DNA from: an uncultured Pelagibacteraceae bacterium
GTDB taxonomy: Bacteria > Pseudomonadota > Alphaproteobacteria > Pelagibacterales > Pelagibacteraceae
DNA: 64,000 nt
Direction of reading: 5' to 3'
Assembly: GCA_902539145.1 (NCBI GenBank)
Contig: CACBHX010000001.1
Coordinates: 413 to 64,412 of the forward strand
This document shows positions 57,000 through 59,230 of the stretch, one piece after another. The translations under genes and the position numbers were made by a program. The notes below the pieces were generated by a model that saw nothing but the letters and a program-made list of their open reading frames with translations, was not told where the DNA came from and made no database searches. The first letter of the stretch is position 1, and every line of letters starts with the position of its first letter.

Positions 57000-57949
57000 A
57001 TTTTTATTTTATTAAGTGCATTATTTTTAAATATATTTGCTTCCCTAATATATCTTCTGACCATTTGTGTTGTCTTATGGCCTGTCATTGCCATTATACT
57101 TCTTTCATCTGCCCCAGATTCAGCGGCTACAGTTGCAAAACCTGACCTTAAACTATGACCTGCAAAATTTTTATTTTCAATACCTGCTAAATTTAAATAT
57201 TCTTTCATTAGCCAAACTACAGATTGATCAGTCAATCTTTGATTAGTTAATGATGAACCTTTAGAAAATCTTCTAAATATTGGTCCTGAATTAATTTTAG
57301 AAATTTCTAACCATTTTTTTAAATTTGTAACAGGACAGTAAATATCATTAGTGAAGTAGGGCAGTCCTTTAACCATTCCTTCACCAAATTGATCAGTTTT
57401 TGATTTTTTAATAATGATTTTGAGACCTTCAGGGACAAATTCTAAATCCTCATGGTCAATTGAAACTAGTTCGGTTCTTCTAAAACCGCCTCCAAAGCCA
57501 ATTAAGATTAATGATTTGTCTCGAAGTTTTTTTATTTCCTCAGTTTTTTGTTCATTTATTACATTAATAATTAATTTTAAATGATTGATTAATAATGGTT
57601 TTTTACCTTTCTGAATGCTACCTTTAACCCTTCTTATCCCCATTAAATTTTCAACTATAATTGGATGTTTAGTGTCTAGATAATGACCTTTCAGCTTATG
57701 AACCATACTTATTGAAACTAATCTTCGTCTTAAAGTGCTTATTTTTGAGTTTTTAGAGAGATGGGTTAGATACAAGGAAACTATTTTCGGCTCTGTTGGT
57801 AATGAATTTAATCCATGTTTTGCACAAAAAGTTCCAAAGTCTTTAAAATCCGATTTGTAAGCTCTTAGAGTATTGTTTGCTTTAGAGATTTTAAGATTGT
57901 TTAAAGTTGCCTCATGAAGTGATTTTAGGTCTGTAGTAAGTTCATTCAT
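56996..57949 (-). CDS. Cre-like tyrosine site-specific recombinase
   Basis: NTLRAY N-domain; catalytic R (GFRRTEL), K (KSKTDQ), HxxR (GHSLRSG), H (TGHK), Y (VRRY) all present. Confidence 0.93.
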   Translation of the reverse strand: MNELTTDLKSLHEATLNNLKISKANNTLRAYKSDFKDFGTFCAKHGLNSLPTEPKIVSLYLTHLSKNSKISTLRRRLVSISMVHKLKGHYLDTKHPIIVENLMGIRRVKGSIQKGKKPLLINHLKLIINVINEQKTEEIKKLRDKSLILIGFGGGFRRTELVSIDHEDLEFVPEGLKIIIKKSKTDQFGEGMVKGLPYFTNDIYCPVTNLKKWLEISKINSGPIFRRFSKGSSLTNQRLTDQSVVWLMKEYLNLAGIENKNFAGHSLRSGFATVAAESGADERSIMAMTGHKTTQMVRRYIREANIFKNNALNKIKI

Positions 57950-57952
57950 ATA

Positions 57953-57987
57953 ATTACTATTGATAACATTTAATTATCATTAGTAAT
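57953..57987. promoter_or_regulatory. Putative recombinase binding/crossover site (14-7-14 inverted repeat)
   Basis: ATTACTATTGATAA-CATTTAA-TTATCATTAGTAAT, 13 of 14 arm positions complementary, asymmetric spacer, 3 bp upstream of the recombinase ATG. Confidence 0.72.
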
Positions 57988-58029
57988 ATATCAAGTGATT
58001 TTTAATGTCAATAGTTTAAATTAAAATAT

Positions 58030-58203
58030 ATGGGTTCAATTGATGGAGAAATACCTGCGGTATGGTTTTTGATAAGTTCAATTGGATTTATTATTTTAAG
58101 TGTTATTCAGTATAAAAATACTGGCAAAAGTATAAATACAATATTTTTATCAAGTATGGCTATTATATTTTTTGTAAGTTACCTAATATTGCTTACAAAA
58201 TAG
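58030..58203 (+). CDS. Unannotated 57-aa two-TM membrane protein
   Basis: ATG 58030 to TAG 58201-58203: MGSIDGEIPAVWFLISSIGFIILSVIQYKNTGKSINTIFLSSMAIIFFVSYLILLTK; absent from the ORF track (shortest listed ORF is 60 aa). Confidence 0.6.
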   Translation: MGSIDGEIPAVWFLISSIGFIILSVIQYKNTGKSINTIFLSSMAIIFFVSYLILLTK

Positions 58204-58300
58204 GAGTTATCCCCGAAATTCACAGAAAAATCATCTAATTATGAAAAACAACTATTTAGTGATAACAATTTATATTTAGGTCTGATAAGGTAATTATAAC

Positions 58301-58485
58301 TTAAGAGGCAACTCTTAACTGGCCAGCCAGAGAAAGGCCGAGAGGTTTAAGTCTGGAGGGCAGAAAACCCTGTAAAGCAGCGCTAAACATACAGGGTGGT
58401 CGGTTCGGCGGTAGCGCATAAAACGACGAGCCATAAAATTCTGATCTTTGCACTGTAAAAAGTGTAAAGAATCAGGGTTTTTTTT
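58301..58485 (+). ncRNA. GC-rich structured RNA upstream of ogt (sRNA or riboswitch-like leader)
   Basis: Five stems, two GNRA tetraloops, G-U pairs on + strand, loop-loop complementarity GCGCTA/TAGCGC, terminal terminator. Confidence 0.8.
58437..58485 (+). terminator. Intrinsic terminator ending the structured RNA
   Basis: AATTCTGATCTTTGCACT-GTAAAA-AGTGTAAAGAATCAGGGTT stem running into T8 (58478-58485). Confidence 0.78.
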
Positions 58486-58764
58486 ATGAGACCCTTACTT
58501 GGAACAAAATTTCAATTAAAAGTTTGGAAATACCTGATTACTATCCCTAAAGGCAGCGTGAAAACATATAAACAAGTAGCAATTGCCATTAAAAACCCTA
58601 AAGCAGCCCGTGCAGTCGCAAATGCTTGTGCAAAAAACCCATATGCTCCAAAAATACCCTGTCATAGAGTGATTAGGTCTGATGGAGGTCTTGGAGGTTA
58701 TTCTGGGAGAGGTGGAATCAAGCAAAAGCTCAAATTACTTAGATCTGAAAAAGTATCTATTTAG
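58486..58764 (+). CDS. ogt: O6-methylguanine-DNA methyltransferase, C-terminal domain only
   Basis: GTKFQLKVW, TYKQVA, ARAVA, PCHRV active site. Confidence 0.92.
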   Translation: MRPLLGTKFQLKVWKYLITIPKGSVKTYKQVAIAIKNPKAARAVANACAKNPYAPKIPCHRVIRSDGGLGGYSGRGGIKQKLKLLRSEKVSI

Positions 58765-59230
58765 CACTATTTTAAACCATTTTTAAGTTAAAAAAGTAAG
58801 TAAAATCAACCTTTTTAAACCTTTTTACATGATTTCATTCTAAATAACATAATTCACCCTTTAGTTGTACCATATATTAGCCTATACTTAAAATAGACCC
58901 CTCTACGGGCGTTTAAATGGTATATTCAGTTAGTGCATCGCTCTACTATTAAACTATATCAATGCTTTTAGACTGCCCTATTTTTAGGAAATTTTCATTA
59001 ACACAATTGGAAAAAAGTCCCTATTTTAAAAGGCTATTTGATATTTTCCATAATTTGCAATAAATCTCTACTCTTACTCAGTAAATCAAGAAAATTTTAG
59101 CATTAAATAATCTAAAATGTTCAAAAATTATATTATTTATATTATTAATAAAATATAATAAAAACAATAGTTTAAAATTAATGCTTAATGTAATACTTTA
59201 GATAATAGTAAATAAATAATACCTATTATT

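Follow-up and report, generated by a model that had tools for sequence, protein, structure and literature searches.

An RNA element upstream of ogt in a Pelagibacteraceae contig is a copy of IMES-2, probably a gene of its own

The GC-rich structured element that precedes ogt in the DNA analyzed here (a stretch of 64,000 nucleotides from an uncultured Pelagibacteraceae bacterium, referred to below as the window) is a complete copy of IMES-2, a catalogued RNA family of the SAR11 clade, an assignment about which there is next to no doubt. The element is therefore not a discovery, since the family is already in Rfam (RF02035). We consider it very likely that this identity, combined with a stand-alone transcription unit and a folded RNA that acts in trans, is the right overall explanation of the element.

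IMES-2 is a conserved, complexly folded RNA present in about half of the sampled species of the most abundant bacteria of the ocean. Three points are added here: the association with ogt reflects an indel polymorphism at a locus that is otherwise conserved and not a functional link, a conserved promoter block is found in all three gene contexts of the RNA, and the pairing between the loops L3 and L4 is backed by a change that is complementary, not parallel, in one genus.

Identification of the RNA

When the whole window is scanned with cmscan against Rfam 15, five matches exceed the gathering thresholds: four tRNAs and RF02035, the IMES-2 RNA motif. The latter scores 150.3 bits, to be compared with a gathering score of 54.7, with an E-value of 3e-41; the match is untruncated, and its posterior probabilities are maximal throughout.

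58294-58434, plus strand: IMES-2 RNA core (RF02035, model positions 1-141 of 141; cmscan, full length)

A previous, sequence-only reading of this DNA had presented the element as an RNA of unknown class, and had set the comparison with Rfam beforehand as the test of novelty. The strong, full-length match to RF02035 at 150.3 bits removes that novelty: the element is a member of an already known RNA class, not of a new one. The same reading was right to say that the RNA is not a tmRNA, RNase P, SRP, 6S or common riboswitch. Indeed, a permissive rescan of positions 58100-58700 (E<=1, 4227 Rfam families) returns no family other than RF02035, hence no match to the models of tmRNA, RNase P, SRP, 6S or known ribozymes and riboswitches, and ARAGORN finds no tmRNA in the window. 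Its mention of an abundant small RNA of marine Pelagibacter was also on target, as was its view that the plus strand encodes a genuine RNA, about 185-190 nt long, whose structure can include a pseudoknot.

The description of IMES-2, from metagenomic and metatranscriptomic sequences of marine origin, is attributed to Weinberg, Perreault, Meyer and Breaker (Nature 2009, 462:656). Full-text literature searching on IMES-2 gave nothing relevant, the original 2009 descriptions being outside its reach. The window copy differs in nothing essential from the family: its four hairpins and their conserved loops are the same, its host belongs to the marine SAR11 clade, and it occurs in marine RNA libraries. 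It holds the loop words of the family, GGCAAC, CGAGAG, GCAGCGCUA and GGUAGCGCAU, in columns that are invariant or nearly so. The Rfam model ends at 58434, whereas the transcript of the window most likely extends through a terminator hairpin to 58485. IMES-1 (RF02034), from SAR86, an abundant marine RNA that comes from the same discovery, likewise stands alone, but the two RNAs are unrelated in sequence, structure and host clade.

Fold of the RNA and contact between its loops

The element had been noticed as a sharp GC-rich island, and so it is: the GC content of 58294-58434 is 50.4%, against a mean of 27.9% for the window (standard deviation 5.7%, 141-nt windows), which makes it the most GC-rich stretch of this length in the 64 kb. 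A 194-nt stretch folds with a minimum free energy (MFE) of -72.7 kcal/mol, compared to a mean of -45.4 for shuffled sequences (z = -6.6), and none of 200 shuffles folds as well. We compared 67 homologues (63 distinct sequences) from three genera, aligned to a covariance model. The features of the fold are the following.

58301-58318, plus strand: P1, UUAAGAG-GCAA-CUCUUAA, 7-bp hairpin with a GNRA loop (Rfam consensus; 98.6% of cells paired; both-side changes in 4 of 7 pairs)
58319-58363, plus strand: P2, long hairpin (Rfam consensus; CUG-G-CC with GG-CAG at 58359-63, GCCAGA with UCUGGA)
58367-58397, plus strand: P3, ACCCUGUA / UACAGGGU, 58367-74/58390-97, with the 15-nt loop L3 (both-side changes in 8 of 8 pairs)
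58402-58432, plus strand: P4, GGUUCGGCG / CGACGAGCC, nine pairs, 58402-10/58424-32, with the 13-nt loop L4 (both-side changes in 7 of 9 pairs)
58380-58385, plus strand: L3 side of the loop-loop helix, GCGCUA, partner of 58412-58417 (five core pairs standard in 57-62 of 62 sequences)
58412-58417, plus strand: L4 side of the loop-loop helix, UAGCGC, partner of 58380-58385 (same pairing evidence as the L3 side)

All four helices P1-P4 agree with the Rfam consensus structure and covary in the 63 distinct homologues; in this alignment, which is fitted to the P1-P4 model and therefore favors these helices, while the loops lie outside the model, 32 of the 39 pairs of P1-P4 alone have changes on both sides. 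When the loop-loop helix is added to the Rfam-type structure, 89.9% of the cells are paired, against 32-46% with slid partners, and both-side changes are seen in 33 of 47 pairs; none of 500 shuffles reaches any of these measures. P2 also has a GAAA/UAAG internal loop, and it is capped by GGCC-GAGA-GGUU; pairing in its outer helix reaches 95.1%, 9 of the 11 pairs there covary, and the four pairs of the cap helix all covary. The loops of P1 and P2 are invariant GNRA tetraloops, and conserved A-rich linkers join the stems.

Most of the helices proposed from the letters of the sequence are therefore found again in the Rfam consensus and covary: this is so for P1 (58301-58318, with its GCAA loop), for the inner part of P2 (CCAGA/UCUGG under the GGCC-GAGA-GGUU cap) and for P3 (58367-74/58390-97). 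P4 had been drawn as six pairs, 58402-07/58427-32; the helix itself is confirmed by Rfam and by covariation, but its length was underestimated, since it has nine pairs. On the contrary, the junction helix that would associate CUGGCC (58319-24) with GGUCGG (58398-403) has to be abandoned, as its pairing and covariation are no better than those of shuffles: in 63 sequences, 60.2% of the cells are paired compared to 60.9% in the shuffles, the covariation is 0.009 in both cases, and the two middle pairs do not form in 54 of 62 sequences. In Rfam, CUGGCC pairs locally with GGGCAG (58358-63), which closes P2, and the pairs of CUG/CC with GG/CAG covary. The latter observation also disposes of the proposal that AGGG (58357-60) is an alternative partner for CCCU: these nucleotides belong to the 3' strand of P2, and they are not free.

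An open reading frame of 50 aa on the minus strand (58301-58453) was rejected as a gene; the homologues differ from one another there by single-base indels and by paired compensatory changes.

The compact fold, the invariant junction nucleotides and the tertiary-contact motifs could be those of a small ribozyme or of an RNA that binds a metabolite and acts in trans. We regard this as very unlikely: no ribozyme or riboswitch of Rfam matches even at E<=1, no conserved cleavage-site architecture was recognized and there is no expression platform.

The complementarity of GCGCUA (58380-85) and UAGCGC (58412-17), from which a kissing loop had been predicted, is present and conserved, with one compensatory change. 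The loop word GUAGCGC is nearly invariant in L4, and in most lineages L3 and L4 share this identical word, so that conservation alone could mean that the RNA has two copies of one recognition motif. The sequences of one genus (g2) decide in favor of pairing between L3 and L4. At one position of the loop-loop helix, 51 sequences have a G-C pair and 11 have A-U; all the A-U cases belong to g2, where L3 reads GUAGCAC (GCGC has become GCAC) and L4 reads GUAGUGC (GCGC has become GUGC); the change is thus complementary, not parallel. An A-U pair is gained at one end of the helix and one pair is lost at the other, so that its length stays 6 bp. As the loops of g2 are no longer self-complementary, only the pairing of L3 with L4 is conserved, and the homotypic pairing of either loop with itself is not. 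In five other sequences (L020-24), one terminal loop-loop pair is lost and a G-U is kept, and a divergent copy (L025, described below) does not have the partner word UAGCGC in L4. As far as the data go, it stands up that L3 and L4 can form a 6-bp loop-loop helix, backed by one natural compensatory change; this covariation corresponds to a single evolutionary event, in g2, and it would be the same for pairing within a molecule and between molecules.

The same loops might be read as the seeds of a base-pairing small RNA, GUAGCGCUAAAAU in L3 and GGUAGCGCAUA in L4 being used to recognize mRNA targets. IMES-2 does look like a stand-alone gene with a promoter and a terminator, and its most conserved single-stranded words, which are GC-rich in a genome of 28% GC, could be specific. 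However, these candidate seeds complement each other, the change in g2 is complementary and not parallel, which fits mutual pairing better, and invariant GNRA loops together with A-rich linkers are features that one would expect of a tertiary fold. We therefore find a role as base-pairing small RNA distinctly unlikely.

Loop-loop (kissing) tertiary contacts are known from the L2-L3 interaction of purine riboswitches and from the HIV-1 DIS dimer. As in IMES-2, they consist of Watson-Crick pairs between two hairpin loops, with a GC-rich and partly palindromic core. IMES-2 differs from these systems in that we see no ligand pocket or expression platform in it, and its contact may be either intramolecular or intermolecular.

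In the intermolecular case, L3 of one molecule would pair with L4 of another, in a reciprocal or head-to-tail manner, and dimers or oligomers made of RNA only would be formed. The complementarity of L3 and L4 holds in all lineages. Besides, only 4 nt link P3 to P4, and on geometric grounds a coaxial P3-kiss-P4 stack of about 23 bp would not close within one molecule without a sharp bend. There is also a precedent in multimeric bacterial non-coding RNAs, RNA-only multimers being described in a cryo-EM preprint (10.1101/2024.12.08.627333). Against this, covariation cannot separate pairing within a molecule from pairing between molecules. The loops, of 15 and 13 nt, are also long enough for the two hairpins to lie side by side in the same molecule, as they do around the L2-L3 contact of purine riboswitches. 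All in all, we hold the formation of RNA-only assemblies to be possible, although unlikely; if it were true, the most abundant marine bacteria would contain a particle made of RNA only.

Gene contexts

In the window, a tyrosine recombinase gene (minus strand) and a 57-aa open reading frame precede IMES-2, which is followed by a gene for a 92-aa alkyltransferase (ogt) and by a gene for an EamA transporter (minus strand).

58486-58764, plus strand: ogt, 92-aa single-domain O6-alkylguanine-DNA alkyltransferase with a PCHRV motif and no N-terminal domain (Pfam PF01035, 4.5e-32)

Three fixed and unrelated contexts are found among 184 loci: recombinase/ogt (108 loci), mnmA and a 233-aa unknown protein (66 loci), and SNase/SRAP (10 loci). 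In the mnmA and SNase contexts, that is, in 76 of the 184 loci, the downstream gene converges on IMES-2, which means that there is no cis target there.

The arrangement seen in the window could be that of a cis-acting leader, either a riboswitch or an attenuator, that controls ogt through the terminator. IMES-2 lies directly upstream of ogt on the same strand, the ATG of ogt (58486) abuts the U8 tract of the terminator, some contigs from RNA libraries bridge the terminator into ogt, and 108 of the 184 loci have this arrangement. However, a leader would have nothing to regulate in cis in the 76 loci whose downstream gene is convergent. Conversely, five complete genomes of the genus of the window that do not have IMES-2 (loci L199-L203, from G007, G009, G101, G134 and G005) keep the order recombinase-ogt-EamA, with ogt orthologues at the same locus that are 76-85% identical to that of the window. 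Moreover, the RNA has a conserved promoter of its own in every context, and no alternative pairing between P4 and the terminator is seen by eye. The co-directional related genes and the expression platform that characterize a riboswitch or leader are not found, IMES-2 being in three unrelated contexts. Control of ogt in cis is, in our opinion, extremely unlikely.

Since the ogt locus is kept in genomes without IMES-2, the RNA cassette is an insertion/deletion polymorphism in a conserved locus. In these genomes, ogt comes directly after the small open reading frame in one case out of five; in the other four, a 145-aa open reading frame overlaps the start of ogt. The functional link to ogt that had been implied is thus only positional, considering that 76 of 184 loci have a convergent neighbor and that relatives without the RNA keep ogt in place.

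The interval between the recombinase gene and ogt varies within the genus: it contains IMES-2, or the small open reading frame alone, or open reading frames of 66 aa (121 aa in one genome) and 145 aa.

With the ATG of ogt next to the U-tract, there is no room in the window for a promoter of ogt's own. This observation and the RNA-library contigs that bridge the terminator into ogt (58402-58532, 58424-58520 and 58456-58650) lead us to think that ogt, as it is arranged here, probably owes its transcription to read-through. We regard this cis effect of the cassette as incidental.

Altogether, the three unrelated contexts, the convergent neighbors, the promoter and the hairpin that travel along with the RNA, and the conservation of ogt where the RNA is absent make us quite confident that IMES-2 is a stand-alone RNA gene that acts in trans and has its own promoter and terminator.

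The gene that converges on IMES-2 in g2 (L026-L037) belongs to the SRAP family (abasic-site DNA-protein crosslinks), and the neighbor in the genus of the window is an alkyltransferase gene; both encode DNA-damage proteins. The mnmA context lacks a gene of this kind, so that we take this to be probably a coincidence.

Promoter, terminator and transcript

58248-58266, plus strand: conserved upstream block, CAACTATTTAGTGATAAC in the window, consensus aATCAACTAnAAAGTGATAC, an imperfect ATCA-N9-TGAT palindrome in the -35 region (all three contexts)
58283-58291, plus strand: predicted extended -10 element, TGaTAAGGT, with TG at 58283-84 and the hexamer TAAGGT at 58286-91 (conservation upstream of IMES-2)
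58435-58485, plus strand: predicted intrinsic terminator, a long hairpin (58435-58481) and U8 (58478-58485) (MFE fold)

Transcription would be directed by the AAGTGATAC-type box at 58258-66 and by TGaTAAGGT at 58283-91, and it would produce an RNA of about 190 nt that starts at about 58297-58300 and ends with the hairpin and the U8 tract, at 58485. Of 172 distinct upstream regions, 169 contain a G[TCA]GAT[AT] box (consensus AAGTGATAC), which is the right half of the longer block aATCAACTAnAAAGTGATAC. In 154 of 165 upstream regions, the box is located 20-21 nt ahead of the -10 hexamer. A TAnnnT-like hexamer is found 7-9 nt before the first position of the Rfam model in 152 of 165 regions, with a TG ahead of it in 138 of 165. 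The box and the extended -10 element accompany IMES-2 in all three gene contexts, including those of mnmA and SNase, where no recombinase gene adjoins. The TGATAA-type words at 58260 and 58283, which might be taken for half-sites of the recombinase, belong to this box and to this -10 element. The block at 58248-58266 would thus seem to function in the promoter of IMES-2, to judge from its conservation and position. A simple sigma-70 scan, which assumes a spacer of 16-18 nt, does not pick out this promoter; the 20-21 nt spacing of the box falls outside that range.

The box was also considered as a general promoter motif, and this was rejected: the window contains two occurrences of the box plus hexamer, where 1.5 are expected.

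The positions of the block, the TG and the hexamer predict that transcription starts at about 58297-58299. The RNA-library contigs of two studies start at 58296 and 58300, in agreement with this prediction; this is a weak hint only, and assembled contigs cannot show true 5' ends. RNA libraries of separate studies contain contigs that match the window at 100% identity from 58296/58300 to 58401/58453; being contigs, they can neither rank expression nor prove transcription. In four RNA libraries, no contig covers positions 58081-58295.

As had been predicted, the last stem is followed by a terminator, which appears in the MFE fold as a long hairpin and the U8 tract at 58478-58485. Among the RNA-library contigs, ends are seen at 58453 and 58485. 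In every lineage there is a hairpin after IMES-2; a run of T comes next in the contexts of ogt and SNase, and a U/C-rich tail in that of mnmA. A simple terminator scan of 57900-58900 found none, and it may be that the one-base bulge in the stem of the MFE fold falls outside the rules of the scan.

The ATCA-N9-TGAT block is centered about 43 nt upstream of the predicted start, and a center about 43 nt upstream of the start is typical of the site of a class II activator. The SAR11 clade has very few transcription factors. The palindrome at 58248-58266 may be the operator of a regulator. One might go further and suppose that a dedicated regulator bound to this block sets the expression of IMES-2, and that the RNA forms oligomers through intermolecular L3-L4 contacts, as an RNA-only particle; the odds are clearly against this combination of hypotheses.

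Possible mode of action

With regard to what IMES-2 does, we return to the stand-alone gene for an RNA that acts in trans. The molecule folds into four consecutive hairpins; the loops of P3 and P4 would be paired in the 6-bp loop-loop helix, and this helix would hold the fold together with GNRA/A-minor contacts. IMES-2 would then act in trans as a compact folded molecule, not as a leader of ogt. The folded RNA might bind a protein partner, either as a scaffold or as a ribonucleoprotein that sequesters this partner.

Most bacterial RNAs that are abundant, encoded by a single copy, folded into a tertiary structure and devoid of a cis target bind proteins. It is from this usual role, and from the architecture of IMES-2, that the protein-binding mode is guessed; we offer it tentatively, as our best guess, with a little less than an even chance of being correct. 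The model for this guess is 6S RNA and the other abundant housekeeping RNAs, in which, as in IMES-2, a single-copy gene that runs from promoter to terminator encodes a structured RNA. IMES-2 differs from 6S RNA in that it does not form a rod with a central bubble, and the Rfam model of 6S RNA has no match in 58100-58700. Nor does this model find a 6S RNA in any of five complete SAR11 genomes, be they carriers of IMES-2 or not, and it matched only 5 of 14 control genomes. Considering that it misses SAR11 regardless of IMES-2, as well as most controls, these results provide no argument that IMES-2 is a substitute for 6S RNA.

Distribution and divergent copies

There is one copy of IMES-2 per genome, and that of the window is the sole copy in its 629-kb assembly, which is 65% complete. 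Of the 151 Pelagibacterales genomes sampled, 28 are positive with the Rfam model, all in one family (27 of 90 when the genome of the window is left out). The sister family has none in 60 sampled genomes, and 14 control genomes have none either, with the same model.

At the level of genera, where many of the genomes counted are incomplete, IMES-2 is found in 12 of 15 species of g2, in 45 of 61 species of g5 and in 21 of 77 species of the genus of the window with the Rfam model, while a purpose-built model gives about 78 strong matches among 150 in the latter. The complete, single-contig genomes G069, G001 and G021 carry the RNA. An exact-pattern scan of about 185,000 species, with one genome per species, gave at least 120 matches, and those listed are all from Pelagibacteraceae, Pelagibacter or Pelagibacterales. 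IMES-2 thus occurs in three genera of Pelagibacteraceae and, among the matches listed, every genome match is assigned to Pelagibacteraceae, Pelagibacter or Pelagibacterales.

An origin from a phage or another mobile element was also considered and rejected: the exact pattern has no match in the IMG/VR viral contigs, and blastn gives no match in 50,697 phage records.

Two copies do not fit the general picture. The complete genome G122 contains a divergent IMES-2-like copy (L025, 1501-1628, minus strand), which the Rfam model scores at 69.7 bits and which follows a MarC-family gene, a fourth kind of context. Its P2 is shortened and its P4 is without the loop word mentioned above, while L3 keeps GUAGCGCUA. 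This copy may be in decay, or it may represent a variant that has no loop-loop contact. The other case is L029, from a genome assigned to g2 (G157, 75% complete, with 4% contamination), in which the IMES-2 is of the g5 type (156 bits) and so are its flanks, unlike those of the other g2 loci; this could result from a binning error or from a transfer between genera.
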